Positions 7,364-63,484 of a stretch of 64,000 nt of DNA are shown piece by piece. The DNA lies in the NCBI GenBank assembly GCA_001793945.1, contig MGIW01000006.1, positions 1,584 to 65,583 on the forward strand, given 5' to 3'. The notes under the pieces were generated by a model. It was not told the origin of the DNA. It saw only the letters and a list, made by a program, of their open reading frames with translations, and searched no databases. The stretch comes from Candidatus Wolfebacteria bacterium RIFOXYD12_FULL_48_21 (GTDB lineage Bacteria; Patescibacteriota; Minisyncoccia; UBA6257; UBA9933). Each line of letters starts with the position of its first letter. Positions within the stretch are counted from its first letter, which is position 1. The position numbers and the translations under genes were made by a program.

Positions 7364-7720
7364 ATGAATGAGAATGCATATAATCTTGAGCAGCGAACGC
7401 GAGAGTTTTCTGTTCAGGTAATACGATTTCTTAAAACATTACAACAGGATACTATAAGCAGGCCGATTATTGGTCAACTAATACGGTCTGCTACCAGTGT
7501 CGGTGCAAATTATTGTGAGGCAAATGGGGCAAGCTCAAAAAAAGATTTTTGCAATAAAATATTTATTTGCAAAAAAGAGGCCAAAGAAACACATTATTGG
7601 CTTGATCTTATCGAAGAATGTTGCGGATATAAGAAGGAGCTTAATCATTTAAGAAATGAATGTGTCGAGCTGATTAGAATATTTTCTAAAATAGCCGCAA
7701 GTAGCAAAGAGGAGAGGTAA
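7364..7720 (+). CDS. four-helix-bundle protein (23S rRNA intervening-sequence protein family, TIGR02436-like)
   Basis: 118 aa; signature SATSVGANYCEANGASSKKDF...KEAKETHYWL; two paralogs at 22429 and 63131. Confidence 0.8.
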   Translation: MNENAYNLEQRTREFSVQVIRFLKTLQQDTISRPIIGQLIRSATSVGANYCEANGASSKKDFCNKIFICKKEAKETHYWLDLIEECCGYKKELNHLRNECVELIRIFSKIAASSKEER

Positions 7721-7775
7721 TTTGAAATTTAGAATTTTTAATTTATATTTTCAAATTTCGAATTTCAAATTGTAA
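7717..7775. repeat. AT-rich boundary element (ggTAAtttgaaatttagaatttttaatttatattttcaaatttcgaatttcaaattg); supplies stop codon of 7364..7720
   Basis: direct repeat of element at 7331. Confidence 0.75.
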
Positions 7776-7787
7776 ATTATCCAATGT

Positions 7788-8033
7788 ATGTCTGAAATTC
7801 TACCTAACGAAGTGTATACGACCGGGGAGGCTGAGGCTCTCTTAAAAGTGAGCAACAGCACCATGAAGCGTCTTTTGAAAAAGGGGCTCCTTCGGGCAAA
7901 CAAAGTGGGTGGGCAATACAGGATATTGGGGCATGAATTGTTGCGATTGCTTTCGCCTGAGGTAGATCAAAAGGCGACCGATCTGTATCAAAAGGTAAAG
8001 ACCATAACAAGGGAGGCGACCAAACACTGGTAA
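7788..8033 (+). CDS. helix-turn-helix DNA-binding protein (excisionase/MerR-like HTH_17 family)
   Basis: 81 aa, TGEAEALLKVSNSTMKRLLKKGLLRANKVGGQYRI matches excisionase-family HTH. Confidence 0.55.
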   Translation: MSEILPNEVYTTGEAEALLKVSNSTMKRLLKKGLLRANKVGGQYRILGHELLRLLSPEVDQKATDLYQKVKTITREATKHW

Positions 8034-8038
8034 TACAT

Positions 8039-9508
8039 ATGGATATTGACAAGCAGGCGGGGAAAAACTTTGCATGGCTCTCGACCGCACAGGTTGGCAT
8101 ACGCATTTTGGGCGCGGCGTTTTTCTTTTTTCTGTCGTACATATTGAAAGATACCGGGCTGGGCCAGTACAGCTTCGTTGCTTCGTTGGTTCCGTTTTGG
8201 TTTATTTTGGTTGATTTTGGTGCTAGTGGATATTTGTATCGCGAGTGGACTCGTGGGAAGGATGATCTAAAAACGATGGATCGTGATTTTAATATTTTGT
8301 TCACAACGCGGCTTATTATTATTTCGGCCGTGTTCATTCCGTTCGTCGCAATCAACTATGTTTCCAATCGGGATATATTGAGCTCGTTGATCCTGCTGTT
8401 CATTGCGCTGTTCATATCCCAAATGGTCGGGCTTTACGACTTGTATCTGCAATCGGCTAACCGGTTTAATGTCGTCGCCATCCGACAGGTCATAGAAAAG
8501 CTTGTGGTCACTGCTGTTGCCACCGTGGGACTGTTGTTATTGCCAAAGGTCTATGTCGTCTTTTTTGCCATTTTGGTAAGTTACATCGGCGCACTTTTGT
8601 ATTATCGGTATCGCGCCAACTTGCCATTCAGGTTTCACCTTGTATTTGATTGGGCGCGTTCCAAAGAACTGTTTCGCAAAGGAATGCCGTTTGTTTTTTT
8701 GGGCATGTTCGCCGCCATTTATGGACGCATCGACATGATCATGCTCCGGTACTTCAGTGGATTTGAAGCGGTCGGCTGGTATAGTGTTGCGTACAAGTTT
8801 TTGGATATCTCGTTTGTGTTCCCGTCGCTTTTTCTCGCCTCTATATTTCCTTTGCTTTCTTCCCTGTATGCGCGGGAAGGATCGGCCGGGCAATTTGCCA
8901 AACTGTTCGAAAAAAGTTTTCGCGTACTGTTCTCGTTTGGTGTTCTTGTGGCCGTATTTTTTATGTTTTTTGCGCCGCGCGTCATCGATCTGTTCTTTAT
9001 TGATTCGTTCGCCCCGGCGGCTCCGGCGCTGCGCATATTGATGGTAGGGCAAATGTTCGCATTTTTGAGCCTGTTGTTCAGTAATCTACTCATCGTTCAG
9101 CGAAAGGAATATAAGGGTCTGTATGTCGTCATGGCGTGCGCGTTGCTTAATATCGCGCTCAACATTTTGTTGATTCCAAAGTTTTCGCTCTATGGCGCCG
9201 CATGGGCAACGGTCGCGGCCGAGCTGGTTAATCTTGCCATATTGCAACACTATGCCGAATGGAAGACCACTCGCAATACGCTTATGACGATGTTTGCCGT
9301 GAGCGCGGGCAATTTGGCGTTGTTTGCAATATTTCACATAGCCGGCCTATTGGATGTGCTGTGGTTGGGCATTGTGGCATTGCTCTGTAACTTTGCTTTG
9401 TTGTTTGCAGTACGCTTGGTAAATAAGAATGATATACTCCTGTTTCTTGATCCGTTCGTCATGAAATTCAAAAGCCTACTGCGAAGTAATCAAGTTGATA
9501 CCGTATGA
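8039..9508 (+). CDS. polysaccharide biosynthesis protein / oligosaccharide flippase (Wzx-like, MOP superfamily)
   Basis: 489 aa, 12-14 predicted TM helices, polysacc_synt-like organisation. Confidence 0.6.
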   Translation: MDIDKQAGKNFAWLSTAQVGIRILGAAFFFFLSYILKDTGLGQYSFVASLVPFWFILVDFGASGYLYREWTRGKDDLKTMDRDFNILFTTRLIIISAVFIPFVAINYVSNRDILSSLILLFIALFISQMVGLYDLYLQSANRFNVVAIRQVIEKLVVTAVATVGLLLLPKVYVVFFAILVSYIGALLYYRYRANLPFRFHLVFDWARSKELFRKGMPFVFLGMFAAIYGRIDMIMLRYFSGFEAVGWYSVAYKFLDISFVFPSLFLASIFPLLSSLYAREGSAGQFAKLFEKSFRVLFSFGVLVAVFFMFFAPRVIDLFFIDSFAPAAPALRILMVGQMFAFLSLLFSNLLIVQRKEYKGLYVVMACALLNIALNILLIPKFSLYGAAWATVAAELVNLAILQHYAEWKTTRNTLMTMFAVSAGNLALFAIFHIAGLLDVLWLGIVALLCNFALLFAVRLVNKNDILLFLDPFVMKFKSLLRSNQVDTV

Positions 9509-10437
9509 ACAAGCCAACCCTTACTATCGGCATACCTACTTATAATCACGGTCATTTTTTAAAGGAATGCCTTGCGTGTGTTACTGGCCAGTTCGCCGGT
9601 CAGGGTATTTTTGATCGCGTAGAGATCGTGGTGTCGGACAACGGCAGTATCGACAATACGGCGGATGTTGTCCGGGAATATCAGAAGAGATTTTCAAATA
9701 TCCGATATTCCCGAAATGAAAGAAATTTGGAATTCGACCGGAATGTCGATGCCGTGCTTTCCATGGCGCGCGGGCAATTTTGCTGGACGCTGAGCAGTAA
9801 TGAATATCTGAAACCGGGGAGTATCGCATTTGTTCTTTCGGCGATCGAGCAGAATCGCGACGCGGCATTTTTATGCATATCGAATCGGCGAGAGGATATT
9901 GGGAAATCGGAGCTTCGGCGGTTCGCCAACGGAAGCCAATGGTTGAAGGATATGGGGCTGTTTGGCGGACAAATCTCCCAATGCGTATTCAATATGGAAT
10001 ATTTGCCGAGCGAGCGGGCAAAATATTACGATAATTTCTGGATCCATCTTTCGCTTTTTTGGGAAGCAGCTATTCGCCATCCGGTTGTGTTGCTGCCGTG
10101 CCTGTTTGCGCTGCCAGATGTCGTTCCGGTCTGCAAGTGGGCATGGGATCGGGGCGGTGGGCAGAATCTGATGACATATGTGTATCTTAAAAAGAATGTG
10201 GAAGGCCTTCTTCGGCTCGGTTATACTTATGAGGTAGTAGATCCTATTGTGAGCGGGTTGGCGAAAGGATTGCCTCGTATGGTCGCGTCGGCAAGATTAT
10301 GCGGATTGCCGATCGAGTGGAACAGATTTTTTCTACTGGTAAGGGAATTTTACCGCTATCCTCTGTACCTACTTGCTTCACTCGTGATTTTCGTTGTTCC
10401 CGTTATGGCGTTGCGAATGGTAAAAAAATATAGTTGA
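9505..10437 (+). CDS. glycosyltransferase family 2
   Basis: N-terminal LTIGIPTYNHGHFLKECLACV GT-A signature; start overlaps upstream stop (ATGA). Confidence 0.7.
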   Translation: MNKPTLTIGIPTYNHGHFLKECLACVTGQFAGQGIFDRVEIVVSDNGSIDNTADVVREYQKRFSNIRYSRNERNLEFDRNVDAVLSMARGQFCWTLSSNEYLKPGSIAFVLSAIEQNRDAAFLCISNRREDIGKSELRRFANGSQWLKDMGLFGGQISQCVFNMEYLPSERAKYYDNFWIHLSLFWEAAIRHPVVLLPCLFALPDVVPVCKWAWDRGGGQNLMTYVYLKKNVEGLLRLGYTYEVVDPIVSGLAKGLPRMVASARLCGLPIEWNRFFLLVREFYRYPLYLLASLVIFVVPVMALRMVKKYS

Positions 10438-10438
10438 T

Positions 10439-11488
10439 ATGCATATTGATACCAATAAAAAAATAGTCGTGTTCGATGCGGGTATTCCCCAGCTTTTAGA
10501 CAATAAGGTCTTTGACCCCGTTGCGGCAAAGGCCATAAGCCATACGATATTGCCTGCCTGTTATTTGTATCAAGAAGCGCTTAAGCGGGGCATACAGCTG
10601 GTGACGCCGGATATCTATTTTGCCTTGCCGAACAAGCCCGCGCATGCGCCGTTGATCAGTAATTTGACGAGCGAATATACGCAGCGGCTCATCGATGCGG
10701 GCGTCGAACCGACCCTTCTTGCCTGTGGCGAATCGCCGTTCATCGCTACGCGATTTTATGTCGGTTTGAAACGCATTAGTGCGGCATTTGTGCATTCGTT
10801 TGTGTTTAAGGGGATGAAGAAGCGGCTGAGTAAAAAGACGATTTATCATCAAATGTTTTTTCCACAATCATTTGAAGTGGCTTCTTTTGCGCCGGTTCCG
10901 TTCGGACAAAAAAAGTTCATCACGATGATCAGCGGCAACAAGCGTGTCGATAATTGGAAAAAGAACATCGTACTCAAGTTGCTGTACGGATTCGGGGTGA
11001 CAGAAATCTATGGAAAACGACTGTCGGTCATTGATCATTTTTCGGGCAAGGGGTTCGACTTGTATGGATTTGGATGGGATGCGAGCACGCGGCTGAGCGT
11101 CGTTGCGGCATATCGGGGGACGGTGGAAGATAAAGGTGAAACATTGGCACGATACAAGTTTGCTTTTTGTCTTGAAAACTCTATTTTCGAGGGAAATGTG
11201 ACCGAGAAGATATTTGATGCCTTATTTGCCGCCTGTGTGCCCGTGTATTTGGGCGCACCGGACATTGCCGACTATGTTCCCAAAGATGCATTCATCGACA
11301 TGCGTGATTTTGCTTCGTATGATGCGCTGGAAACATTTTTGCGAGCCATGGATGGAAAAACATACAGCGGATACATCGAGCGCATACAAGCATTTTTACG
11401 GTCGGATCAGTACAAACGCTTTTCTCAGGAACAATATGCAAACGATGTACTTTCTATTCTTGAAGAATCATTCAACAACCATGCCTAA
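10439..11488 (+). CDS. alpha-1,3-fucosyltransferase-like glycosyltransferase (GT10)
   Basis: C-terminal motif YKFAFCLENSIFEGNVTEKIFDAL matches GT10 FucT motif (..CFENS..YVTEK..). Confidence 0.6.
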   Translation: MHIDTNKKIVVFDAGIPQLLDNKVFDPVAAKAISHTILPACYLYQEALKRGIQLVTPDIYFALPNKPAHAPLISNLTSEYTQRLIDAGVEPTLLACGESPFIATRFYVGLKRISAAFVHSFVFKGMKKRLSKKTIYHQMFFPQSFEVASFAPVPFGQKKFITMISGNKRVDNWKKNIVLKLLYGFGVTEIYGKRLSVIDHFSGKGFDLYGFGWDASTRLSVVAAYRGTVEDKGETLARYKFAFCLENSIFEGNVTEKIFDALFAACVPVYLGAPDIADYVPKDAFIDMRDFASYDALETFLRAMDGKTYSGYIERIQAFLRSDQYKRFSQEQYANDVLSILEESFNNHA

Positions 11489-15070: not shown

Positions 15071-15808
15071 ATGCTTAAAGCGATCGTCAAAAAAACAAAA
15101 AAAATTGCATTGCTTCCGCTTATTATTGGGGATTATTTTGCATTCAAAAAAGCAGCCGGCCGTAACGGGCGCTTTACCGTAAATCTTGGCGATGCTTATC
15201 CGTGTCCTTTTGACAAGACCATGTTGACCGGGTTTGATCGGCATTATGTGTATCATACCGCTTGGGCGGCGCGGAAGGTTGCGTACATAAAGCCGGAGGT
15301 CCATACGGATATATCTTCGAGTCTGTATTTTTCTTCCATCGTTTCGGCTTTTGTGCCGGTAACATTTTATGATTATCGGCCGGCCGATCTTCAGTTGAGC
15401 GGCTTGCTTAGTGAAAAGGCAGATCTGCTTGCATTGCCGTTTGCAGACAATAGTGTTGCGTCGCTTTCATGCATGCATACCGTGGAGCATGTGGGGCTGG
15501 GGCGCTATGGCGACCCTATCGACCTAGATGGCGACCTGAAGGCAATCAAGGAGTTGCAGCGGGTGCTTGCGCCGGGCGGATCGCTGTTGTTCGTAGTACC
15601 GATAGGCAAGGCAAAGATCCAATTTAATGCGCATCGCATCTATTCCTACGCCATGATCATGGAATATTTTAATGATCTTGAGTTGAGGGAGTTTTCGCTT
15701 ATTCCCGAAACAAGCGGCTCCATGATCGTCAATGCAACAAGAGAGCAGGCGGACGAGGAGGCATATGGATGTGGATGCTTTTGGTTTGTGAAGAAAGGGA
15801 ATGGGTAA
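15071..15808 (+). CDS. putative SAM-dependent methyltransferase (Methyltransf_11/DUF268-like); stop codon lies inside AT-rich boundary element
   Basis: LQRVLAPGGSLLFVVPIG motif II-like; weak overall. Confidence 0.4.
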   Translation: MLKAIVKKTKKIALLPLIIGDYFAFKKAAGRNGRFTVNLGDAYPCPFDKTMLTGFDRHYVYHTAWAARKVAYIKPEVHTDISSSLYFSSIVSAFVPVTFYDYRPADLQLSGLLSEKADLLALPFADNSVASLSCMHTVEHVGLGRYGDPIDLDGDLKAIKELQRVLAPGGSLLFVVPIGKAKIQFNAHRIYSYAMIMEYFNDLELREFSLIPETSGSMIVNATREQADEEAYGCGCFWFVKKGNG

Positions 15809-15852
15809 TTTGAAATTTAGAATTTTAAATTTTAAATTTATAATTTTATATA
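15803..15852. repeat. AT-rich boundary element (gggtaatttgaaatttagaattttaaattttaaatttataattttatat)
   Basis: same family as 7331/7717. Confidence 0.75.
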
Positions 15853-16718
15853 TGATCATCATCAAATTAAAAGGAGGGTTGGGGAATCAGATGTTCCAGT
15901 ATGCGTGCGCGAAGCATTTGGCCGAGCGTAATGGTGATGTATTGAAATTGGACATCAGCCTTTACCAACCGGGCAATGCTCCCGCGGGCGATACCGCGCG
16001 TTCGTATGCCTTGGGCGCGTTTTCCATTTCCGCACAGGTGGCGAGCAAAGAAGAGGTCCGGCGGGTCAGGGGGCTACTGTGGCACATTATGGCATTAGCC
16101 ATGAAGGTCATTAACAGGGTGCGGCCGATATCCAGTTACATGTTTGACCCGCAGGTATTAGAACGCAGAGGCAATGTGTATCTGGATGGATATTTTCAAA
16201 GCGAGCGATATTTTAAGGATATAAAAGCTTGCATCAGAAATGAATTCCGATTGCGTGAACCTATGGGTGAGCAGGCGCAGGCCATGTTGCGCGACATCGA
16301 CGGATCGGATTCCGTTTCCCTGCATATACGGCGAGGCGATTATGTGACAAATAAAAACGCCAATGCGTTTCATGGGACCTGCCCGCCCGAATATTATCAT
16401 GCGGCTATCAAGGAAATAGGTAAGCATGTACATTCGCCGAAGTTCTTCATATTTTCTGATGACATCGAATGGGCAAAAGCGGATGTCGGCATGCCGGCTC
16501 ATGCTACCTATGTGTCCCGCGATGGCATAGCAGATTATGAGGAGCTTTTATTGATGAGCAAGTGCAAGCACAACATCATCGCGAACAGCAGTTTTAGCTG
16601 GTGGGGTGCGTGGCTCAATGCAAACTCGAACAAGATCGTTGTTGCGCCGAAGCGGTGGATAAACGACGAGCGTGTCGATACGAGTGATGCGGTGCCTGTG
16701 GAATGGGTTAGTATGTGA
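15852..16718 (+). CDS. alpha-1,2-fucosyltransferase (GT11); start moved from 15801 (which reads through the AT-rich repeat) to Met 15852
   Basis: IIKLKGGLGNQMFQYACAKHLA = canonical GT11 N-terminal motif (FutC-like). Confidence 0.75.
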   Translation: MIIIKLKGGLGNQMFQYACAKHLAERNGDVLKLDISLYQPGNAPAGDTARSYALGAFSISAQVASKEEVRRVRGLLWHIMALAMKVINRVRPISSYMFDPQVLERRGNVYLDGYFQSERYFKDIKACIRNEFRLREPMGEQAQAMLRDIDGSDSVSLHIRRGDYVTNKNANAFHGTCPPEYYHAAIKEIGKHVHSPKFFIFSDDIEWAKADVGMPAHATYVSRDGIADYEELLLMSKCKHNIIANSSFSWWGAWLNANSNKIVVAPKRWINDERVDTSDAVPVEWVSM

Positions 16719-18565: not shown

Positions 18566-18690
18566 GATGTGAGGTTGGAGATGTGAGATTAGAGGTGTGA
18601 GGTTGGAGATGGGAGGTATGAGATGCGAGATGAGAGATGAGAGGTGAGAGATGCGAGGTTAGGGGGTGGAGATATGAGACGGGGGGCGGA
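18566..18690. repeat. GA-rich repeat tract (gtgaggttggagatgtgagattagaggtgtgagg...gagatgcgaggttaggggg)
   Basis: direct reading, lies between two minus-strand genes. Confidence 0.7.
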
Positions 18691-22363: not shown

Positions 22364-22367
22364 TAAT

Positions 22368-22399
22368 GTGAGATTGGAGGTTAGAGGTATGAGGTGTGG
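22368..22399. repeat. GA-rich repeat, left inverted repeat flanking four-helix-bundle gene
   Basis: gtgagattggaggttagaggtatgaggtgtgg; reverse complement recurs at 22811-22855. Confidence 0.65.
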
Positions 22400-22428
22400 A
22401 ATGATAAAATGAAACGAATATATTTATT

Positions 22429-22809
22429 ATGAACGGAGAATCCTTAAAGATTAGATCGTTTACTGATTTACATGCGTGGCAAGAAGCGCATGCATTAGTG
22501 GTGGCTATTTATACGCTGACAAAGTTGTTTCCCAAGGAAGAGCTTTTTGGATTAACCTCTCAAGTTCGTCGTGCCGCCATATCGGTTCCTTCTAATATTG
22601 CCGAGGGGTTTAGTAGGGGTTCATATAAAGAACGCCATCAATTCTATTCAATAGCAAGGGGATCTCTTACCGAAGTGCAGAGCCAGCTACTTATTGCGCG
22701 AGATGTACATTATATTAATAGGGACATGTGTGAAAAGCTATTTTTGCAAACAGAGACAGTTAGTCGGATAATAAATGGACTTATGAAAAGCACTAAAGCA
22801 TTATGTTGA
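22429..22809 (+). CDS. four-helix-bundle protein (23S rRNA IVS protein family)
   Basis: 126 aa, LTSQVRRAAISVPSNIAEGFSRGSYKERHQFYSIARGSLTEVQSQL. Confidence 0.8.
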   Translation: MNGESLKIRSFTDLHAWQEAHALVVAIYTLTKLFPKEELFGLTSQVRRAAISVPSNIAEGFSRGSYKERHQFYSIARGSLTEVQSQLLIARDVHYINRDMCEKLFLQTETVSRIINGLMKSTKALC

Positions 22810-22810
22810 T

Positions 22811-22855
22811 TATCTTATCTCTCACCTCTGACCTCATACCTCTCATCTCACACCC
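22811..22855. repeat. TC-rich repeat, right inverted repeat partner (tatcttatctctcacctctgacctcatacctctcatctcacaccc)
   Basis: shares cctcatacctct and atctcac with reverse complement of 22368-22399. Confidence 0.65.
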
Positions 22856-24196: not shown

Positions 24197-24214
24197 GGGG
24201 GGTAGTATGTATTT

Positions 24215-24240
24215 GGTATATGGTATACTGTATAATAATT
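24215..24240 (+). promoter_or_regulatory. extended -10-like promoter motif (tggtatatggtatactgtataat)
   Basis: TGGTATACT/TATAAT-like upstream of 24261. Confidence 0.35.
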
Positions 24241-24260
24241 AAATTATTATACTAAATACT

Positions 24261-25096: not shown

Positions 25097-25270
25097 ATGA
25101 ACTATTTTAGTTGGGCAAAACTTATTCTTGGTCTTTGGGTGTTCGTTTCTCCATGGGTGCTCGGGTTTGCCGGATATCCACTCGCATTGTGGAGCAACAT
25201 TCTGAGCGGCGCGGGCATTGTTGTTCTTGTGCTTTGGACCTTGTTTGGGAAGAGGGATGCTAACAGATAA
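25097..25270 (+). CDS. SPW-repeat small membrane protein
   Basis: MNYFSWAKLILGLWVFVSPWVLGF; start moved to internal Met. Confidence 0.4.
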   Translation: MNYFSWAKLILGLWVFVSPWVLGFAGYPLALWSNILSGAGIVVLVLWTLFGKRDANR

Positions 25271-25420
25271 CAGATAACCAATAACCGATAACGAGATGCG
25301 AGGGAATAACCAATAACCAATAACAGATAACCAATAACCAATAACGGGATGCGGGAAATAACCTATGACAGATAACTAATAACCGATAACGAGATGCGAG
25401 GGGAAAACATAAAATTATTT
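25262..25420. repeat. (ATAACCRATRAC)n low-complexity repeat, three units each ending in G(A/G)GATGCG(A/G)GG
   Basis: taacagataacagataaccaataaccgataacgagatgcgaggg...ataaccaataacgggatgcggg...ataaccgataacgagatgcgagggg. Confidence 0.8.
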
Positions 25421-25684: not shown

Positions 25685-25748
25685 TGGCAGAATGTATACG
25701 GTATACGGTATACTGTATACATACTACGCTTCTCTTATCTCTAACTAT

Positions 25749-27715: not shown

Positions 27716-29227
27716 ATGAGATATTTTTTACAAACAATCTTTGCCGCTACTATTGTATTATTTTTTATTGCCAATGTTGGTACTGTTTTTGCCGCGGAGG
27801 GGGATTTGGTGTGGACGCAGGTCAATAACCCGAGTGCGATTTCTGATGCCGCGGGACCCATTGCCGTCGACGCGAGCGGCATTTATGTTGCGGGTTATGA
27901 TACAATCCCCGGCAATTACCAGTGGCGCATAGAAAAGCGCAGCCTTTCCGATGGTGCGGTTATATGGACCAAAACAAGTAACCCGAGTTCGGATACTGAT
28001 TATGCGACAGCCATTGCCATCGACGCGAGCGGCATTTATGTCGCTGGGTATGATTATGTTTCCGGCAGGTTCTTTCGATGGCGCATAGAAAAGCGCAGCC
28101 TTTCCGATGGCGCGGTCATATGGACCAAAACGAATGACCCGAGTGCGAGTCATGATATTGCTAACGCCATTACCATCGACGCGAGCGGTATTTATGTCGC
28201 CGGGTTTGATTCTATTCTCGCCAACTATCAATGGCGCATAGAAAAGCGCAGCCTTTCCGACGGCGCGATCATATGGACCAAAACGAACAACCCGAGTGCG
28301 GGCGGTGATTATGCGACAGCCATTACCGTCGACGCGAGCGGCATTTATGTCGCTGGGGTGGATGCTATTCCCGGAAACAATCAATGGCGCATAGAAAAGC
28401 GCAGCCTTTCCGACGGCGCGGTGATTTGGACCCAAACAAGCAATCCGAGTGCGCAACCTGAGGGTGTAGGCGCCATCACCGTCGACGCGAGCGGCATTTA
28501 TGTCGTCGGTGATGATTTTACTCCCGGTTTCGGCAATTCCCAATGGCGCATAGAAAAGCGCAGCCTTTCCGACGGCGCGGTGATTTGGACCCAAACAAGC
28601 AATCCGAGTGCGAGTTATGATGGCCCTGGATCCATTGCCATCAACGCGATCGGTATTTATGTCGCCGGGTTTGATTCTATTCTCGCCAACTATCAATGGC
28701 GCATAGAAAAGCACAGCCTTTCCGACGGTGCGGTCATATGGACTAAAACGAACAACCCGAGTGCGAGTTCTGATGTCCCGGGAGGCATTGCCGTTGATGC
28801 GATTGGTATTTATGTGGCGGGTAATGACCGTGCGTCCGTCAATGATCAATGGCGCATAGAAAAGCGTGAAAGAGCTTCCTTCATCTGCGCTGGTCCGTTT
28901 GCCGCATCTTGGACCGATTCGACCATTACCGCCAACAGCACCAAGATCCGCAAGGTGCACATCGACGAGTTGCGGAGCGCGATAAACACTCGTCGTATCG
29001 ACGCCGGGTTAACTAACTATTCTTGGACCGATCCGACGATCACAGCCAATTCCACCAAAATCCGTAAGGTGCACATTGATGACCTCCGCACGGCAATTTC
29101 GCAAGTCTATACGACCTGTGGGCAAGCGGCCCCGAGTTGGACCGATCCGACGATCACAGCCAACACCACCAAAATCCGCAAGGTGCATATTGATGAATTG
29201 CGGAGCGCGGTCAGTAATGCCCAATAA
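27716..29227 (+). CDS. secreted SBBP-type beta-propeller repeat protein with C-terminal triple 40-aa repeat
   Basis: signal peptide; 7-8 x ~50 aa blades WRIEKRSLSDGAVIWTKTNNPSA...IDASGIYVAGYD (SBBP-like DxSGnIYVTG); then 3 x SWTDPTITANSTKIRKVHIDELRSAI. Confidence 0.55.
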   Translation: MRYFLQTIFAATIVLFFIANVGTVFAAEGDLVWTQVNNPSAISDAAGPIAVDASGIYVAGYDTIPGNYQWRIEKRSLSDGAVIWTKTSNPSSDTDYATAIAIDASGIYVAGYDYVSGRFFRWRIEKRSLSDGAVIWTKTNDPSASHDIANAITIDASGIYVAGFDSILANYQWRIEKRSLSDGAIIWTKTNNPSAGGDYATAITVDASGIYVAGVDAIPGNNQWRIEKRSLSDGAVIWTQTSNPSAQPEGVGAITVDASGIYVVGDDFTPGFGNSQWRIEKRSLSDGAVIWTQTSNPSASYDGPGSIAINAIGIYVAGFDSILANYQWRIEKHSLSDGAVIWTKTNNPSASSDVPGGIAVDAIGIYVAGNDRASVNDQWRIEKRERASFICAGPFAASWTDSTITANSTKIRKVHIDELRSAINTRRIDAGLTNYSWTDPTITANSTKIRKVHIDDLRTAISQVYTTCGQAAPSWTDPTITANTTKIRKVHIDELRSAVSNAQ

Positions 29228-30471: not shown

Positions 30472-30915
30472 ATGGCAATGGAAGATGTAGCAAAATTGCG
30501 GGAATTGACCGGAGCGGGTGTTGTGGAGTGCAAAAAGGCACTCGATGAGGCAGCGGGGGATTTCGACCGTGCAAAAGACATCATTTTTGAGCGCGGCATC
30601 GCCCGAGCCGAGAAAAAGAGCGATCGTGCGACTGGCGCAGGGCTGTTGGAGACCTATATTCACAATGGCCGCGTGTCCGTTATGCTTGAACTGCGTTGCG
30701 AGACCGATTTTGTGGCGCGCAATGAAAAGTTTCAAGCCTTGGCGCACGACATCGCTATGCATATCGCCGCGATGAATCCGGCGACCGTTGAGGAATTGTA
30801 CGCCCAGCAGTATGTAAAGGATCCCTCCATGACTGTTGAGGAGCTGATCAAAAATTTGATTGGAACCATCGGGGAGAATATGAAGGTGGAGAAGTTTGTG
30901 AGATTCGAGATCTGA
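30472..30915 (+). CDS. tsf: elongation factor Ts (short form)
   Basis: 147 aa, VAKLRELTGAGVVECKKALDEA UBA-like N-terminus, conserved TDFVARNE motif. Confidence 0.85.
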   Translation: MAMEDVAKLRELTGAGVVECKKALDEAAGDFDRAKDIIFERGIARAEKKSDRATGAGLLETYIHNGRVSVMLELRCETDFVARNEKFQALAHDIAMHIAAMNPATVEELYAQQYVKDPSMTVEELIKNLIGTIGENMKVEKFVRFEI

Positions 30916-30944
30916 GATAAGAGATTAGTGGTGAGAGGTAAGAT

Positions 30945-40721: not shown

Positions 40722-40817
40722 GGGGGGTATTTTGGGGAGTTTGACCGAGTGGGCGGAATGGCAAATAGCCCCATTCCACGGCTTTATTCTTTATACGGTA
40801 TACCGTATACTAAGCGT

Positions 40818-48794: not shown

Positions 48795-49973
48795 ATGAAA
48801 AACCTTTCCGCATTGTACGACCGGAATCTTTCCGAAGAGATCGTCATCGTTCGCGTCGATCTGAATATTAATAACAAGACCTTGCGTGTAAGCGGGCCTA
48901 ATTTGCGCGTCACCTCCATTATCCCAACGATCAAATTCTTGACCAAGCGTGGCGCAAAGGTCGTGCTGGTCAGCCATCGGGGAAGACCGGCTGGCGTAAC
49001 CAATAACCAACGACCAATAACCGATAACATAAAAGAATTTACATTGAAACCGTTTGCGAAGATCCTTGGTGGATTACTGAAGAAAGATGTTTCGTTTATT
49101 CCGCACGATACGAAAGAATATCGTTTGTTTTCGGATGCGAGCGCCGAGAAGATCAAAAAAGCCTCAAAGGGTTCCGTGTTCCTGCTTGAAAACATGCGTT
49201 TCTTTGCCGGCGAAGAGAAGAACGACCCCGCCGTCGTGCGTCCGCTTGCGGAGCTGGGTACATTTTATGTGAATGACGCATTTGCCGTCAGTCATCGCAA
49301 GAACGCTTCGGTGGTCGCCATCACCAAGCTATTGCCTTCGTGCGCGGGGCTTCTGTTGGAAAAGGAAGTGTTTCATATGGACGAAGCAATCAATAACCAT
49401 AAACATCCGTTTGTGGTCATTTTGGGTGGCGCAAAAATGACCGACAAGATGGGGCTGATCAAGCGCTTTATCGGCAAAGCCGATTACTTTCTCGCGGGGG
49501 GTGGCGTGGCCAATACATTTTTTGCGGCCGACGGCCTGCCGATCGGCGATTCCATTTATGAATCGCACATGATCCCCGTTGCAAAAAAGATCATGAAAAC
49601 GAACAAGGTCATTATGCCTATGGATGTTGCCATTTTCGAACGAAAGATCGTAGACAACGGCCCGGGAACGACCGACGAGTGGGTGGAGATCATCAAAAAC
49701 GCAAAGACGATCATTTGGAATGGGCCGGTAGGCGTTATTGAAAACAAAAAATTTGCCAAGGGTTCCGTTGGCATTGCGCAGGCCATCGCCAAGAGCAAGG
49801 CGTTTTCTGTGGTGGGTGGTGGTGAAACAGCACTTGCCTTTACAGGCGTTCCGCTTAAAAAGAACACATTTCTTTCTACGGGGGGTGGTGCGATGTTGGA
49901 GTACCTTTCTGGCATCAAGCTGCCTGGAATAGAGGCGCTGCGCGAGAAAAAAGGAAAAGGAAAAAAGAAATAA
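48795..49973 (+). CDS. pgk: phosphoglycerate kinase carrying an in-frame (ATAACC)-repeat insertion
   Basis: 392 aa; VRVDLNI, SHRGRP, VFLLENMRFFAGEEKNDP, YVNDAFAVSHR motifs; between GRP and EFTLKPF sits GVTNNQRPITDNIK encoded by aaccaataaccaacgaccaataaccgataac. Confidence 0.9.
   Translation: MKNLSALYDRNLSEEIVIVRVDLNINNKTLRVSGPNLRVTSIIPTIKFLTKRGAKVVLVSHRGRPAGVTNNQRPITDNIKEFTLKPFAKILGGLLKKDVSFIPHDTKEYRLFSDASAEKIKKASKGSVFLLENMRFFAGEEKNDPAVVRPLAELGTFYVNDAFAVSHRKNASVVAITKLLPSCAGLLLEKEVFHMDEAINNHKHPFVVILGGAKMTDKMGLIKRFIGKADYFLAGGGVANTFFAADGLPIGDSIYESHMIPVAKKIMKTNKVIMPMDVAIFERKIVDNGPGTTDEWVEIIKNAKTIIWNGPVGVIENKKFAKGSVGIAQAIAKSKAFSVVGGGETALAFTGVPLKKNTFLSTGGGAMLEYLSGIKLPGIEALREKKGKGKKK
48998..49029. 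repeat. (ATAACCRAYRAC)n repeat embedded in frame in pgk
   Basis: sequence matches intergenic repeat units at 25262-25420. Confidence 0.75.
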
Positions 49974-53582: not shown

Positions 53583-53776
53583 ATTGAGATAGTATATTTA
53601 ATTCTGTAAGTCGACCCTTCTCATAGGCCTCGAGAGCGCATAAAACAAAAACGTTTTACCTTCATTATCCACATCCGCTACAGCAGTTCAGGATTGGAAG
53701 CAAACTGAGAAAACTTACTGTTCACAGTATAAACCACCTCTCTATAAATAGCAAATGGCGTTGGGGGGGAGGGGGG

Positions 53777-53820
53777 ATAACTGATGACTGATGACTAATG
53801 ACCGATGACGGGATGCGGGG
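53777..53820. repeat. (ATAACTGATGAC)n repeat ending GGGATGCGGGG
   Basis: gataactgatgactgatgactaatgaccgatgacgggatgcgggg; preceded by G-tracts. Confidence 0.75.
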
Positions 53821-58012: not shown

Positions 58013-58045
58013 GAAAGTAATTTGAAATTTAAAATTCGAAATGAC
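58013..58045. repeat. AT-rich boundary element (gaaagtaatttgaaatttaaaattcgaaatgac) abutting start codon of 56115..58010
   Basis: same family as 7331/7717/15803/60686. Confidence 0.7.
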
Positions 58046-58095
58046 ACACCCTGTCATTTCGATTCGCCAGCTGGCGGACGAGGAATCTGCAGGAT
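58041..58095. repeat. palindromic element fragment (ctgtcatttcgattcgccagctggcggacgaggaatctgcag)
   Basis: direct reading. Confidence 0.7.
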
Positions 58096-58101
58096 GGATG
58101 T

Positions 58102-59958
58102 TTACGCGAGTTTTGTCAGGGTGATGTGCGCCGTTTTGATCGGCACTGTGGTTTCGGGTGTCGATTCTTTCATGACCGCTTCGAGAAACTCGTCGAGTGG
58201 TGCGGTTGCCACACATGCGACACTGTCGGCTCCGCCATAGTAGACAAAGAGCGTATCGTCTTTGATGACACTGCCGCAGGCGAAGACTACGCCACGCTTT
58301 GCGCCCTCGTTTTCGTACCATTCGTTCGGTTCCAACAAGGGGATATTTGAACGATAGAGTATCTTTGTGGGGTCGTCATGGTCCAATATCATTGCGCCGA
58401 CTTTGTACCGATTCGGATCACGCTTGTCCATTGCATGGTAGAGTACTAACCACCCCTCTTTTGTTTTGAGTGGTGGCGTTGCCGCGCCGCGCATAAGGTT
58501 ATCCCATCGTGTCCGGTCTCCACTGCAGGAAAACGGACTTTCAATCGCCATTTCTGCGTCCATCGGGTCGTCGAAGTAATCGATTCGGATCGTAGGATTG
58601 ATGCCGTGCAGAAATGCATATTTGCCGTGGATCTTTTCCGGAAACATGACCCAGTTTTTTTGGATCTGTTCCGGTTTTGATATCAGGATCGGTTCTGCCC
58701 AATTCCAGTTTTTTTCAAGAAAGTCAGATACCGGTATCGAGGTAAGTGCCATTCCGGGCGGATGATATCCGTCGAATGCGGTGTAGGTCATGTAGATCGT
58801 GTCGTCCACCTTGACCATGCGCGGATCTTCGCAACCGCTCCAACTGCCACCCGACATATAAAAGTTCACATAGCGTTCCTTTTTAGCTTTTGGCTCCCCG
58901 TAATGTTCCTTGGCGATATAGACCGGCTTTTCCGACCGTTCTTCAAAATTGATACCGTCTTCACTGGACGCGTGGCCGATATATGACATGCCGTTTGCGC
59001 CGATCGCCCGATAGAGCAGGTGTACTCTGCCATCGAGATAGATGGCCGCGGGGTTGAATGTCGCTTCACATTCCCAATGATTGTCGGGATTTGGCGTGAT
59101 GATCGGATTGGCGGGGTGCCGCACGAGTGCTACCGCAGGTTCCACCGGTTGTGGACCGAACAGGGACACGGGGAGTGTGACGGATATGACCTTATTTTTT
59201 TGCGTTCGCCAGTAGTGTTGGATCTGTCCATTGCGATAGACCGTGCCGAGGGAAACTGCCGGAGCGGATCCCTTTGCAAGTGTGGTTTCCCAAATAGGGA
59301 ATGCCGAGCGCCATATCGGGCGGTAGGGTTGGTCGTATGCAAACAGTGCCGCTCCCATAAGGATATGGTTTGCATTGTGTTCGTAGTCGGTTGCATCGTA
59401 GATTGTCAGGATACCCGCGCTGATCGCAGCGGCTCCGATGACGCTCAGTGTCGCACTGTCGAACTCTTCATTGCGCCTATCGAGCAGGGGGCCGGTGATG
59501 TTCCAGTTTTGAAAATCTTTTGTTGCCGCCGCGCGAATTGAACCGTTTCCAAGATATGCGATAAAGTGATCCTTGTATGCGTGGTTTGGAACAATAACAA
59601 GCGGTTCGTTTGCAAAAGGCGTTTTACTGATGACGCGAAAGGTTGTTAGGTCGCTTGAGGCGGCGACGATCCGTTCTGTTTTATTGCGTATGGTGCGCGT
59701 ATAGGTGAGGTACTGCGTAGGGCCGTCATTTGTGATTTGGAAGTGAGTGGCATGGGTGAGCGGTTCCGGCTCTCCGATTGTCGTAAGAACGGCAACTTCG
59801 TTCGCCAATGCAAAATTTACTCCGTCGGAGGCGGTAAAAAGAAACAGTTTCGTTTTTGAAGCGAGCGGGAGCACATACAGGAGTGCGAGTGTATCACCAA
59901 TAGAGGTGACGGCGACGGAGATCATTTGATTTTTGTCGGGTGTAACTGCTTTTTTCAT
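58102..59958 (-). CDS. GH130-like (DUF377) beta-propeller family protein, paralog of 56115..58010, with distinct N-terminal beta-rich domain
   Basis: 618 aa; C-terminal half has SGCEDPRMVKVDDTIYMTYTAFDG and NWNW motifs shared with neighbour. Confidence 0.5.
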   Translation of the reverse strand: MKKAVTPDKNQMISVAVTSIGDTLALLYVLPLASKTKLFLFTASDGVNFALANEVAVLTTIGEPEPLTHATHFQITNDGPTQYLTYTRTIRNKTERIVAASSDLTTFRVISKTPFANEPLVIVPNHAYKDHFIAYLGNGSIRAAATKDFQNWNITGPLLDRRNEEFDSATLSVIGAAAISAGILTIYDATDYEHNANHILMGAALFAYDQPYRPIWRSAFPIWETTLAKGSAPAVSLGTVYRNGQIQHYWRTQKNKVISVTLPVSLFGPQPVEPAVALVRHPANPIITPNPDNHWECEATFNPAAIYLDGRVHLLYRAIGANGMSYIGHASSEDGINFEERSEKPVYIAKEHYGEPKAKKERYVNFYMSGGSWSGCEDPRMVKVDDTIYMTYTAFDGYHPPGMALTSIPVSDFLEKNWNWAEPILISKPEQIQKNWVMFPEKIHGKYAFLHGINPTIRIDYFDDPMDAEMAIESPFSCSGDRTRWDNLMRGAATPPLKTKEGWLVLYHAMDKRDPNRYKVGAMILDHDDPTKILYRSNIPLLEPNEWYENEGAKRGVVFACGSVIKDDTLFVYYGGADSVACVATAPLDEFLEAVMKESTPETTVPIKTAHITLTKLA

Positions 59959-59984
59959 GCGCGCTTAAATACTTTTGTTGCGGG

Positions 59985-60332
59985 TTATGAAGAAGTTCTT
60001 CCGTATGAGTCTTCGAGTCGCACTATATCGTTTTCATTGAATGCGCCAAAGGCCAGCTCAAGGATGCGAACGGTTTGTTCATTTGCCTTTATGCGGTGGT
60101 GCGTTTTTTTAGGAACAACAAATTCATCGCCTTCTTTTGCGATCGTTTCATTTTCACCAATGATAATAGTCGGATTGCCGTCGAGTACCCTCCAAAATTC
60201 CTCGCGGTCATTATGATATTGCAAGCTCAGTTGCTTGCCGGCAGTAACGGTGACCAATTTGACGGTGCTTGGCTCGTTTACTGTGAACCGACGAAAGGAG
60301 CCCCATGGCCGTTGTTCATCTTGGATATCCAT
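59985..60332 (-). CDS. cupin-domain protein (mannose-6-phosphate isomerase type II C-terminal-like)
   Basis: 115 aa; QRPWGSF...SLQYHNDREEFWRVLDG cupin motifs. Confidence 0.6.
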   Translation of the reverse strand: MDIQDEQRPWGSFRRFTVNEPSTVKLVTVTAGKQLSLQYHNDREEFWRVLDGNPTIIIGENETIAKEGDEFVVPKKTHHRIKANEQTVRILELAFGAFNENDIVRLEDSYGRTSS

Positions 60333-60436
60333 AGTTCAATAGATAAAATTGATATTTTTTCGATGCCTGTTCTATAAGTATACTATATCTGACAGGCAAA
60401 AGAAAAAGTAACATTGACCCGCGATGGGTGGGATTT

Positions 60437-60685
60437 TTATGTCGATCCGATCAGGCACAGTTTTTGTGCGCGGGTCAATGTTTTAATAAAGGCTTCCCGC
60501 TTGAGCGCTTCGTTGCGCGAGGGCGCTTCTTCCGTATATGCTATGCGCTTTGCTCCACGGGCATGGACATATTTTGAGCCTTTGCCCGCGGCGTGTTCGG
60601 CAAAGCGGCGATCGACATCGGTTGCTATGCCTGTGTAGAGGGACCCGTCCGAGCATTCGAGAATATAAACGAAATAACAAGGCAT
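60437..60685 (-). CDS. GIY-YIG nuclease-family protein (UPF0213-like)
   Basis: 82 aa; YFVYILECSDGSLYTGIATDVDRRFAEH = GIY-YIG signature. Confidence 0.7.
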   Translation of the reverse strand: MPCYFVYILECSDGSLYTGIATDVDRRFAEHAAGKGSKYVHARGAKRIAYTEEAPSRNEALKREAFIKTLTRAQKLCLIGST

Positions 60686-60724
60686 AGGGTAATTTGAAAT
60701 TTAGAATTCGAAATTTGAAATAAA
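60686..60724. repeat. AT-rich boundary element (gggtaatttgaaatttagaattcgaaatttgaaataaaag) abutting GIY-YIG start
   Basis: same family. Confidence 0.7.
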
Positions 60725-60759
60725 AGGGGAGGGTCTTAAATTTCCGCAGGCTGTACTTT

Positions 60760-62007
60760 ATGATATACTATTACAGTATGGCCGCAATAGACAAAGATTC
60801 GATCGACAAGCTGTTAAAACAGCCGGAAGAGACCATTTCCATTATTGACCTGGTAAAGAGTCTTATTGAATTTGCCTACGCTTCCCGCGCATCCGACATC
60901 CACCTTGATCCGTCTGAGGATAAGCTTATCGTGCGGTTTCGCATCGACGGGGTAATGCATGATGTTTTTCATGTTCCGAAAGCGATTCACCCCGAGGTTA
61001 TTAGTCGTATCAAGGTGCTGTCCGGTCTGCGCACGGATGAACATCAAATTCCGCAAGACGGGCGTCTGCAATTCATAACATCCGATAAGGTAAAATTTGA
61101 TATTCGCGTTTCCATCGTGCCAACCTACCATGAAGAAAATACCGTCATGCGACTTTTGATCCAAGAGGGTCAGGCGGCGCGTGAACTTGAAACGCTCGGG
61201 TTTTCCGAGCGCGATCTTGGCATCGTGCGAAACGCCATCGCAAAACCGTACGGCATGTTGTTGATCACCGGTCCGACCGGCTCGGGAAAGACCACGACGC
61301 TGTACACGATGTTGAAAAAATTGAACCAGCCCGATGTTTCCATTATTACTATCGAAGATCCGGTGGAGTTTTCACTTGAGGGCGTGGATCAAATACAGGT
61401 AAATGCCCAAACCGGCCTTACCTTTGCAAACGGTCTGCGCGCCATTTTGCGGCAAGATCCGAACATCATCATGGTGGGCGAGATCCGCGATGAAGAGACC
61501 GCTTCCATTGCCGTGAACGCCGCGCTTACGGGGCATTTGCTGTTGTCCACCTTGCACACGAACGATGCCGCCACTACACTGCCTCGGTTACTCGATATGG
61601 GTATCGAACCGTTTTTGATCGCTTCCACCGTGAACATTGCCATTGCCCAACGCTTGGTCCGCAAGATATGCCCAGTTTGCAAGGAAGAAGAAAAATATTC
61701 CGTTTCTGCACTGGAAACGCTTGGTGCCGCTTTTCCGGTAGGCACCATTTCTGCAGATATGAACTTTTTCAAAGGAAAGGGCTGCAAAACATGCAACAAC
61801 ACGGGCTATCTTGGTAGGCTTCCTATCTACGAGGTCATGGATGTGTCCGATGCCGTTCGTGAGGCGATTATCGGTCGCGTGAGCGCCGATGAACTGAAAA
61901 AGATCGCCGTACATGAAGGCATGACCACCATGTTGCAAGACGGCATTCGCAAGTCCACGCAAGGACTTACGACACTTGAAGAAATTCTTCGCGTTATTCA
62001 TGGCTAA
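60760..62007 (+). CDS. pilB: type IV pilus assembly ATPase PilB / GspE family
   Basis: Walker A GPTGSGKTTT, Asp box, His box, tetracysteine CPVC...CKTC motif. Confidence 0.85.
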   Translation: MIYYYSMAAIDKDSIDKLLKQPEETISIIDLVKSLIEFAYASRASDIHLDPSEDKLIVRFRIDGVMHDVFHVPKAIHPEVISRIKVLSGLRTDEHQIPQDGRLQFITSDKVKFDIRVSIVPTYHEENTVMRLLIQEGQAARELETLGFSERDLGIVRNAIAKPYGMLLITGPTGSGKTTTLYTMLKKLNQPDVSIITIEDPVEFSLEGVDQIQVNAQTGLTFANGLRAILRQDPNIIMVGEIRDEETASIAVNAALTGHLLLSTLHTNDAATTLPRLLDMGIEPFLIASTVNIAIAQRLVRKICPVCKEEEKYSVSALETLGAAFPVGTISADMNFFKGKGCKTCNNTGYLGRLPIYEVMDVSDAVREAIIGRVSADELKKIAVHEGMTTMLQDGIRKSTQGLTTLEEILRVIHG

Positions 62008-63094
62008 CTTCATCGCTTCGCTCAATCAATCGTTTACCAATGCATTCACGAGAGTTTCGCTCGCGGAGCGTATTATGTTCGTGAAGCACATGTCCATGAT
62101 GATCCATTCGGGCATGACCGAGGTGGAGAGCTTGCGGCTTATCCGAAGTCAGATTAGGAACAAGGGATTTTTGACCATACTCGATGACATCATCGTGAGT
62201 GTTGAAAACGGACAGGCGCTTTCCACCGCGCTTGCGCGATATAACCGCGTGTTTGGGGACCTGTTTGTCAATATCATCAAAATAGGCGAGCTGAGTGGAA
62301 CGCTATCGGAAAACCTTGACTACCTTGCGCTTGAAATGAGAAAAAACCAGTCGCTTCGCTCGAAGGTACGCGGCGCGCTTATTTATCCGGCGGTCATCTT
62401 TGCAGCCACCATCGGCGTGGTCGGCGGTTTGATCTTTTTCATTCTTCCGAAGATTCTGCCGATATTCAAAAGTCTCAAGGTCACGCTTCCGTTCACGACG
62501 CGCGCGCTGATGGCCGTGTCCGACGCGTTGCGGTCGCATACCATTCTTATCGGAATTTTACTTATTGCCTTTATCGCACTGATGTTCGTCTTGCGGCGCA
62601 TCCCCGCAACGCGCTATATATTGCATCGCGTATTGCTTTCGTTGCCGATCTTCGGGAACATATCCATCGGCTTCAATATGGCAAATATGACGCGCATATT
62701 GGGCATGTTGCTCAAGAGCGGTGAAAAGATCGTGCAGGCCATTTCCATTACCGCGGATGCTTCATCCAACATGGTCTATCGCAAGGCGTTACAGGAAGCC
62801 GTCGTCGAGATTCAAAAAGGAAAGACGCTGTATGCTTATTTTGAAGAGCACGAGCGCCTGTTCCCGCCCACGGTCGGGCGCATGATCGAGGTAGGGGAAA
62901 AGACGGGCAACCTCGACAACAACCTTGCCTACCTTGCCGAGTTTTACGAAAATGAGGTAGACGAGGTGACGAAGAACCTGTCGGGCATTCTTGAGCCGCT
63001 TTTGTTGGTGGTCATGGGTGTTGCGGTGGGGTTTGTGGCGTTGGCGATTATTACGCCGATATACGGAATCACCCAAGGCTTGAAAACCAAATAG
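61976..63094 (+). CDS. pilC: type IV pilus platform protein PilC / GspF family
   Basis: 372 aa, two T2SSF repeats, 3 TM segments. Confidence 0.8.
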   Translation: MKKFFALFMANFIASLNQSFTNAFTRVSLAERIMFVKHMSMMIHSGMTEVESLRLIRSQIRNKGFLTILDDIIVSVENGQALSTALARYNRVFGDLFVNIIKIGELSGTLSENLDYLALEMRKNQSLRSKVRGALIYPAVIFAATIGVVGGLIFFILPKILPIFKSLKVTLPFTTRALMAVSDALRSHTILIGILLIAFIALMFVLRRIPATRYILHRVLLSLPIFGNISIGFNMANMTRILGMLLKSGEKIVQAISITADASSNMVYRKALQEAVVEIQKGKTLYAYFEEHERLFPPTVGRMIEVGEKTGNLDNNLAYLAEFYENEVDEVTKNLSGILEPLLLVVMGVAVGFVALAIITPIYGITQGLKTK

Positions 63095-63130
63095 TTCACA
63101 GGAGATAGTTCACGGTTAATTGGTGAGCAT

Positions 63131-63484
63131 ATGCATAATTTTGAACACTTGGATGTGTATAACAAATCGCTGGATATCGTCAATCGTATCTATGGGGTGG
63201 TTAGGGCGTTTCCGAGAGAGGAGCTTTTTTCTTTATCGGATCAATTTAGGCGCGCTGCAACTTCCATTGTTTTGAATATCGCCGAAGGAAGCGGAAGAAG
63301 CAGAAAAGAATTCGCCCATTTCCTTACCGTATCCAGATCGTCTGCATATGAATGCAGTGCTATCGCCGAGATAGCACGAAGGAGGACATATGTCAGCGAA
63401 ACAGAGTTTAAAGAGCTTTATTGTGAATTGGAAGTGATTATCAAGATGCTTAATAGGCTCAGGCAATCCATCCGTGAACTGTGA
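63131..63484 (+). CDS. four-helix-bundle protein (23S rRNA IVS protein family), inserted between pilC and pilin gene
   Basis: LSDQFRRAATSIVLNIAEGSGRSRKEFAHFLTVSRSSAYECSAIAEI; flanked by inverted agttcacgg / ccgtgaact. Confidence 0.8.
   Translation: MHNFEHLDVYNKSLDIVNRIYGVVRAFPREELFSLSDQFRRAATSIVLNIAEGSGRSRKEFAHFLTVSRSSAYECSAIAEIARRRTYVSETEFKELYCELEVIIKMLNRLRQSIREL

Follow-up and report, generated by a model that had tools for sequence, protein, structure and literature searches.

Three genes for small four-helix-bundle proteins are each packaged between arms of tandem 7-nucleotide (nt) repeats in a 64,000-nt stretch of the Candidatus Wolfebacteria bacterium RIFOXYD12_FULL_48_21 genome (contig MGIW01000006.1), hereafter the window. 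The genes are labeled c1, c2, and c3 (Table 1). Each consists of one open reading frame (ORF), and comparison with relatives supports the arm-ORF-arm segment as a discrete unit that is gained, lost, and replaced at operon junctions. The same packaging in other Patescibacteria and in other phyla supports a family-wide rule, in which the four-helix-bundle gene is set in heptamer arms; this package resembles the intervening sequences (IVSs) of 23S rRNA but is found in operons. We found no paper that states this rule. We consider it probable that c1–c3 are the cargo of small IVS-type cassettes whose arms would pair as RNA and enclose the ORF in a stem, and that this stem would be an RNase III substrate. 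An earlier sequence-only reading of the window had proposed that the genes move as small cassettes, and this proposal is supported by empty sites, by reproducible arms, and by a homology that ends at the arms.

Three genes and their heptamer arms

The three ORFs named in the sequence-only reading are members of the four-helix-bundle family. The PF05635 scores of c1, c2, and c3 are 65.8, 133.3, and 113.7 bits (cut-off 33.8), and the TIGR02436 scores are 87.4, 130, and 107.9 bits (cut-off 24). Their lengths lie within the range of about 110–130 aa that is typical of the family. The R-x3-S-x3-N-x2-E motif reported for PF05635 proteins (PMC3936711) is present, and R48, S52, N56, and E59 are invariant in a 20-sequence alignment that includes c1–c3. 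The structural relatives detected by sequence homology are 2GSC (E 1.5e-29) and 2RLD, with five chains in each entry, and a pentamer is stated in PMC4990558. A four-helix-bundle fold and a pentameric assembly are predicted for c1–c3 by this homology. The proteins are 22–35% identical to each other (identity to c2 is 35% for c3 and 22% for c1), so the genes are, judged by sequence, anciently diverged paralogs and not recent intragenomic copies. A six-frame hidden Markov model scan of the 64-kb window did not find a fourth PF05635 copy, and exact-sequence look-ups for c1–c3 gave matches in the same species only. PADLOC returned no match and thus no evidence of a known defence system.

Every one of the six arms is built of 7-nt units in tandem, a point that the sequence-only reading had missed, and the unit type differs from cassette to cassette. 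It is AATTTGA for c1, GAGGT upstream and TCTCACC downstream for c2, and GTTCACG upstream and CGTGAAC downstream for c3. In each cassette, the upstream array recurs downstream as its reverse complement. The short repeats proposed earlier were found at all three genes with unequal strength, c2 being the strongest. Its inverted GA/TC repeats are 47-nt arms (22367–22413 and 22806–22852) with 72% complementarity overall and 89% in a 19-nt core, and the downstream arm ends 1 nt short of the wbaP start codon. The short inverted repeats of c3 were recovered as AGTTCACGG (63107–63115) and CCGTGAACT (63472–63480), a pair that is perfect over 9 nt and extendable to 24 nt at 71%. The AT-rich repeats of c1, described earlier as direct, are both direct and inverted. 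A 31-nt AT-rich unit (7335–7365) recurs directly at 7726–7756 (81%) and 7740–7770 (77%), and it is also 71–74% complementary to 7727–7783. In the c1 downstream arm, the upstream arm is copied directly in the first half and appears as its complement in the second, which makes this region a hairpin in its own right. The minimum-energy RNA folds of all three cassettes are closed by the arms, with z scores of −5.3 (c1), −2.8 (c2), and −2.0 (c3). Flank-pairing energy calculated for 58 window genes ranks c2 first (−47.2 kcal/mol versus a median of −19.6 kcal/mol).

The gene neighborhoods were also read correctly. A Wzy_C gene lies upstream of c1, and c2 has the CorA gene on one side and the Bac_transf gene (wbaP) on the other. 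The T2SSF gene (PilC) is upstream of c3, and the gene downstream encodes a large protein with an N-terminal FTLIEML that we take to be a prepilin-type motif. All three genes are located between protein-coding genes, and none is inside a 23S rRNA helix. An 81-aa HTH_17/excisionase-family DNA-binding gene (7788–8033) starts 5 nt past the downstream arm of c1. No such gene was seen beside the c1-like gene of a relative (locus L174), and the HTH_17 gene therefore probably lies outside the c1 cassette.

Arms and junctions in other genomes

The flanking repeats proved reproducible at 84 c2-like four-helix-bundle genes, which come from 78 loci of other Patescibacteria, and at about a dozen copies from Cyanobacteria and Bacteroidota. 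Patescibacteria are very rich in PF05635 proteins, with thousands of c2-like sequences retrieved. An array with a lag of 7 nt lies within 100 nt of the gene upstream in 52% and downstream in 33% of the 84 genes, and the values at other lags are 0–4%. Array coverage of the nearest 100 nt is 27% on one side and 23% on the other, compared to 1–3% farther off. With crude ORF calling, 75 of the 88 intergenic regions that adjoin four-helix-bundle genes carry an array compared to 37 of the 140 others (odds ratio 16, p 7e-19); the same count in the window gives 4/5 adjoining regions and 7/30 others. At a lower threshold, 74 of the 84 genes have an array on both sides with a median of about 4.6 units, a figure limited by a detection floor of 3 units. 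Upstream, the arrays overlap the start codon; downstream, 84% of them begin before the ORF has ended, in its last codons. The mean arm-pairing energy is −27.0 kcal/mol compared to −18.7 for shuffled arms, −20.1 for mismatched partner arms, and −17.8 for the direct orientation (p 2e-7 to 4e-12). Arm sequence is highly variable by locus (GAATTAA, GTATTAA, CACGAAT, and GAGGTTA), and the complementarity is maintained. Arm similarity follows protein identity (Mantel r 0.23, p 0.002), and divergent paralogs within one genome have different arm types.

PF05635 proteins are also frequent in Cyanobacteria and Bacteroidota, where homologues located on plasmids have the same packaging. A Nostoc edaphicum copy has GGGAGTA repeated eight times upstream and TCCCTAC five times downstream, with a pairing energy of −73 kcal/mol. 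The arms are GGGTGTA and CTACACC in Calothrix and GGTTTAA and AAACCTT in Riemerella. Genes of the family have been noted inside cas operons (PMC3936711), and the Picosynechococcus copy lies between cas10 and cmr3, with a period of 8 nt.

The limits of the unit are seen at locus L030 of one Patescibacteria genome, where two cassettes (2977–3387 and 5346–5750) that encode 90% identical proteins lie about 2 kb apart and bracket one 638-aa gene. Their nucleotide homology extends exactly from the first heptamer of the upstream arm to the last heptamer of the downstream arm. The four-helix-bundle gene is the only ORF within the unit, and no transposase is encoded there. The corA-wbaP and pilC-pilin junctions were compared with those of relatives, and each lacks the gene in some close relatives. 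The corA-wbaP junction carries c2 in the window (WbaP 100%) and in L020 (WbaP 94%). There is no gene in L173 (WbaP 85%), which has a 46-nt spacer without an array, or in L171 (WbaP 80%), where the corA stop and the wbaP start are 1 nt apart. L174 (WbaP 75%) has, between AT-rich arms, a c1-like gene that shares 49% identity with c1 and shows no similarity to c2 that could be detected, and L175 (WbaP 60%) has a c2 ortholog that is 79% identical with GAGGT-type arms.

The pilC-pilin junction has no four-helix-bundle gene in L099 and L100 (PilC 96%) or in L101–L105 (PilC 84–86%), and it has a c3 ortholog that is 86% identical with the same arm type in L188 (PilC 84%). The occupancy does not follow PilC similarity. 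The nearest relatives of the window and of L188 both lack the gene, which requires at least two gains or two losses at this junction. The next c3 homologue (68%) is located between atpF and atpH. An ORF-less hairpin of about 100 nt is found in place of c3 at the junctions of the relatives (L099:3592–3722, L101:3574–3700, L103:3582–3712, and L105:1506–1637). In this hairpin, 17 of the 31 predicted pairs are kept though both sides changed in at least one sequence. Its 5′ start, TTGGTGAGC, persists just ahead of the c3 start codon in the window. An Rfam search of the relatives' loci with this hairpin gave nothing relevant.

The neighbors of the 78 loci are extremely diverse. The 67 upstream genes represent 94 Pfam families and the 60 downstream genes 86, and the atp, thyA-folA, and lexA-dinB operons are among them. 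The neighbors are co-oriented with the four-helix-bundle gene in 76/78 cases upstream and 68/75 downstream.

The window also has heptamer arrays in many intergenic places where no four-helix-bundle gene is present (Table 1), which the sequence-only reading had likewise missed. The window contains 22 lag-7 segments (984 nt) compared to 1–5 segments at the other lags tested, except for 19 at lag 14, a multiple of 7. Based on the ORF list and the called genes, all of the lag-7 segments are intergenic, and they fall into few sequence types. In this Candidatus Wolfebacteria genome, heptamer arrays are widespread in intergenic DNA and not cassette-specific, so the presence of an array alone does not mark a cassette. 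This corrects the sequence-only reading, which had taken the repeat flanks to suggest cassettes; the arrays are, however, strongly enriched next to the four-helix-bundle genes. The gene-less arrays are of the GAGRTGA, AATTTGA, GATAACC/GATGACT, and GTATACG types. The units in the window as a whole vary (GAGGTGA, AATTTGA, GATAACC, GTATACG, and GTTCACG), and the published unit TAACTGA occurs only in the array at 53764–53813. Gene-less arrays of a locus have more 6-mers in common with its resident arms (0.205) than arrays from other genomes do (0.101; p 3e-8). Some gene-less window arrays fold as hairpins, and the segments at 2920–3012 and 25250–25360 are single-orientation and fold no better than shuffles. 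The hairpin upstream of the Wzy_C gene (4985–5082 as folded) has an energy of −29.8 kcal/mol (z −4.1) and only a short loop. It looks like a relative of the cassettes and resembles a cassette minus its gene.

Two other features of the window were seen. A small 82-aa GIY-YIG gene (about 60437–60685, − strand) is found just upstream of pilB-pilC, and the AATTTGA-type array at 60691–60721 comes after it. A tandem repeat with a 153-nt unit (27827–28866; 6.7 copies, 78% matches) lies inside a 503-aa ORF (27716–29227) and presumably encodes a repeated protein domain.

Table 1. Four-helix-bundle genes, their arms, and other heptamer features of the window
Feature	Coordinates	Strand	Description
c1	7364..7720	+	118-aa four-helix-bundle protein gene, PF05635/TIGR02436
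c1 upstream arm	7330..7365	+	AT-rich heptamers AATTTGA AGTTTTT AATTTAG AATTTAA; abuts start codon; lag-7 segment 7337–7365
c1 downstream arm	7716..7783	+	About 9 heptamers
c2	22429..22809	+	126-aa four-helix-bundle protein gene; best family match of the three (133 bits)
c2 upstream arm	22366..22413	+	Purine-rich heptamers TGGAGGT TAGAGGT ATGAGGT (GAGGT-type)
c2 downstream arm	22806..22854	+	Pyrimidine-rich heptamers TCTCACC TCTGACC TCATACC TCTCATC TCACACC; complementary to upstream arm
c3	63131..63484	+	117-aa four-helix-bundle protein gene
c3 upstream arm	63091..63117	+	ATAGTTCAC repeated, 14-nt spacing
c3 downstream arm	63469..63503	+	Heptamers CCGTGAA CTGTGAA CCGTCGA CCGTAAA; overlaps last codons and stop codon
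ORF-less hairpin	4995..5079	+	Purine and pyrimidine heptamer types as in c2 arms; directly upstream of Wzy_C gene
Gene-less heptamer arrays	183–228, 2924–3010, 3130–3165, 15797–15853, 18566–18665		None adjoins a four-helix-bundle gene
Gene-less heptamer arrays	24200–24242, 25256–25356, 25685–25728, 30897–30943, 40780–40812		None adjoins a four-helix-bundle gene
Gene-less heptamer arrays	48995–49034, 53764–53813, 58015–58046, 60691–60721		None adjoins a four-helix-bundle gene

Readings of the arms

The arms close the predicted folds, their pairing has a slight advantage on the sense strand, and the genes are co-oriented with their neighbors. These data favor the IVS-type model at the RNA level. 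We infer the RNA-level stem, its cleavage by RNase III, and the route of movement as follows. The unit is a PF05635 ORF with about four to five tandem heptamers that abut the start codon and reverse-complement heptamers that overlap or follow the stop codon. The cassettes lie co-directionally between genes of unrelated operons and would be transcribed by read-through from the host operon. The arms would pair in the transcript to give a stem of about 15–45 bp that closes the ORF into a loop, and RNase III probably cuts this stem, by analogy with the Coxiella and Leptospira IVSs. The cut would excise or insulate the insert post-transcription, and the insert would therefore be tolerated nearly anywhere, between genes or inside rRNA. 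Gene-less arrays of shared arm types are plausible recombination partners or remnants.

Several observations weigh against this model. No associated recombinase was seen, and no target-site duplication was detected by eye when the occupied corA-wbaP junctions (window, L174, and L175) were compared to the empty ones (L171 and L173). The empty junctions also have no array. The presence/absence pattern could stem from repeated loss and not from insertion. The arms pair only slightly better in the sense than in the antisense strand (−27.0 versus −25.1 kcal/mol, p 0.006), so a hairpin at the DNA level keeps some probability. Flank-pairing energy ranks c1 28th and c3 46th of 58, neither exceptional alone, in a ranking that misses the part of the c3 arm overlapping the ORF end. 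Many gene-less arrays are single-orientation and unstructured, and the stem model leaves them unexplained. The 78 loci all represent a single subfamily, that of c2, and the intergenic-region statistics rest on the crude ORF calling. A motif search did not find RNase III in the 64-kb window, which is uninformative for a piece of this size. Other phyla have exceptions. In the cas6-cas4 gap of a Pseudanabaena galeata plasmid (L186), GCTAAAA is repeated 14 times upstream and GCCAAAA 10 times downstream in direct orientation. One Nostoc PCC 7120 copy (L177) lies beside insertion sequences and has no complementarity. The cassette on the Nostoc edaphicum plasmid pNe_5 (L176) is on the opposite strand between the ribonucleotide reductase beta and alpha genes, which is a misfit with simple read-through transcription.

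The arms may instead be protein-binding sites, with the four-helix-bundle protein, whose crystallized relatives are homopentameric rings, binding tandem heptamers of its own type. The protein would then regulate itself and the same-type arrays before other genes as a post-transcriptional or DNA-level regulon. We regard this as unlikely. The median of about 4.6 units per array is close to the five chains in the solved relatives, but this figure has the detection floor of 3. Arm type tracks protein identity and differs between paralogs of one genome, yet c2-like proteins that are 60–65% identical have very different heptamers (GAATTAA, GTATTAA, and GAGGTTA). Gene-less arrays and resident arms share 6-mers about twofold above the arrays of other genomes, but the shared 6-mers may reflect genome base composition. 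The Avd proteins of diversity-generating retroelements (DGRs), which are relatives of this family, bind nucleic acid. Many gene-less arrays are single-orientation, unstructured, and just upstream of genes, as reported for TAACTGA repeats (PMC4679880); the strict arm complementarity, however, is not needed for simple binding. A broader and more speculative form of this idea is that PF05635 pentamers are the missing binding proteins of the heptamer repeats in Cyanobacteria, Bacteroidota, Xanthomonas, Beggiatoaceae, and Patescibacteria. Each paralog would recognize its own heptamer type, the gene would be packaged between cognate arrays, and the gene-less arrays would constitute a genome-wide regulation or recombination network. 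We hold this to be doubtful, but if true, it would explain two decades-old puzzles, the IVS ORFs and the heptamer repeats.

The arms could also act as DNA. Hairpins, cruciforms, or replication misalignment would let host recombination or slippage insert, delete, or swap the segment, with the ORF as a passenger or accessory. The arm-delimited homology in L030, the precise absence of the gene in L171, and the other subfamily at the same junction in L174 are consistent with this idea, as are the same-type arrays elsewhere in the genome and the nearly equal sense and antisense pairing. The c1 layout of arm, ORF, arm, and complement would be expected if the gene recombined into an existing hairpin array. 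Nevertheless, a purely DNA-level process seems improbable. There is no associated recombinase, no target-site duplication was seen, the empty junctions in L171 and L173 offer no array as a landing site, and the strong co-orientation with neighbors indicates a constraint at the transcript level. That there is no cassette at all, and that these are ordinary, vertically inherited small genes with incidental repeats from common, slippage-prone arrays, is very unlikely. Arrays do occur in about a quarter of the non-adjacent intergenic regions (7/30 in the window and 37/140 at the other loci), and pairing energy does not set the c1 and c3 flanks apart. However, array enrichment at the genes is 85% versus 26%, arm complementarity is well above the controls, arrays overlap the ORF ends, the L030 homology is bounded by the arms, and the occupancy of one junction is patchy with a different subfamily there in one relative.

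Two identities were rejected. The genes have weak matches to bAvd PF22296 (21–22 bits), to NF033474 (18–20 bits), and to the PHROG 'Avd protein of DGR', which would make them DGR accessory proteins. The NF033474 scores are 17.8 bits for c2 and 20.5 bits for c3, and c1 has no match. These values are far under the cut-offs of 40 bits for PF22296 and 80 bits (equivalog) for NF033474, and there is no reverse transcriptase or retroelement gene among the called neighbors of c1–c3, although template and variable repeats were not specifically searched. The scores and the gene context rule out the Avd identity to near certainty. An integron-type cassette was dropped; the arms are at both ends, there is no integrase nearby, and the neighbors are ordinary operon genes.

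Relation to known elements

PF05635 proteins have been known since the 23S rRNA intervening sequences, and a fixed heptamer-arm package gives a handle on them. The packages sit in core operons, including atp, thyA-folA, lexA-dinB, type IV pilus, and CRISPR-Cas genes. A four-helix-bundle gene in a cas or polysaccharide operon is not to be taken as a functional member of that operon. The package boundaries and the gain and loss suggest an RNA-processing step, and they tie the PF05635 family to the intergenic heptamer repeats of several phyla. In the literature, four-helix-bundle genes were found connected with heptamer or inverted repeats only in a remark on the Coxiella IVS; most subscription journals were outside the search, and an earlier description is possible.

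The cassettes have likenesses to four kinds of known element. They share a homologous four-helix-bundle fold and pentameric relatives with the Avd proteins of DGRs, but their Avd scores are under the cut-offs, no reverse transcriptase gene is called nearby, and the genomic packaging is different. MITEs (miniature transposable elements with inverted repeats) and hairpins of the repetitive extragenic palindrome type are also short intergenic units with inverted termini that are present or absent among close relatives, and the hairpin at 4995–5079 is an ORF-less version in the same genome. The cassettes differ in that no transposase gene was seen in the unit and no target-site duplication at the junctions, their arms are variable tandem arrays with no conserved terminal repeat, and they carry a conserved non-transposase ORF.

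The resemblance to intergenic heptamer repeats lies in the 7-nt tandem units, the few copies per array, and the intergenic location, often just before a start codon. The cyanobacterial short tandemly repeated repetitive (STRR) sequences belong to the same class. TAACTGA repeats occur in Beggiatoaceae, Cyanobacteria, and Bacteroidetes, where many are single-orientation, unstructured, and just upstream of genes, and an unknown binding protein was postulated (PMC4679880). GGGAATC repeats are found in Xanthomonas, often as convergent inverted pairs, and GGGGATT repeats in Nostoc (PMC4692102). No mention of four-helix-bundle genes was found in these two papers. The window differs in having several heptamer types in one genome and a link to PF05635 that is statistical and positional.

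The closest likeness is to the 23S rRNA IVSs of Coxiella and Leptospira, in which a stem formed by terminal inverted repeats encloses a PF05635 ORF. In the Coxiella IVS, the ORF encodes S23p, the terminal stem of 28 bp is cut by RNase III, and, as in the cassettes, heptameric repeats lie upstream of the ORF, in variable number (PMC4990558). The IVSs are also small (about 430–500 nt) and have long been suspected to be mobile (PMC4990558). 23S_rRNA_IVP ORFs are found in rRNA insertions of candidate phyla radiation bacteria (10.1101/2024.02.27.582315). The cassettes described here differ from the IVSs in lying between the protein genes of operons and not in a 23S rRNA helix, and in having both arms composed wholly of tandem heptamers, each cassette with a heptamer sequence of its own.

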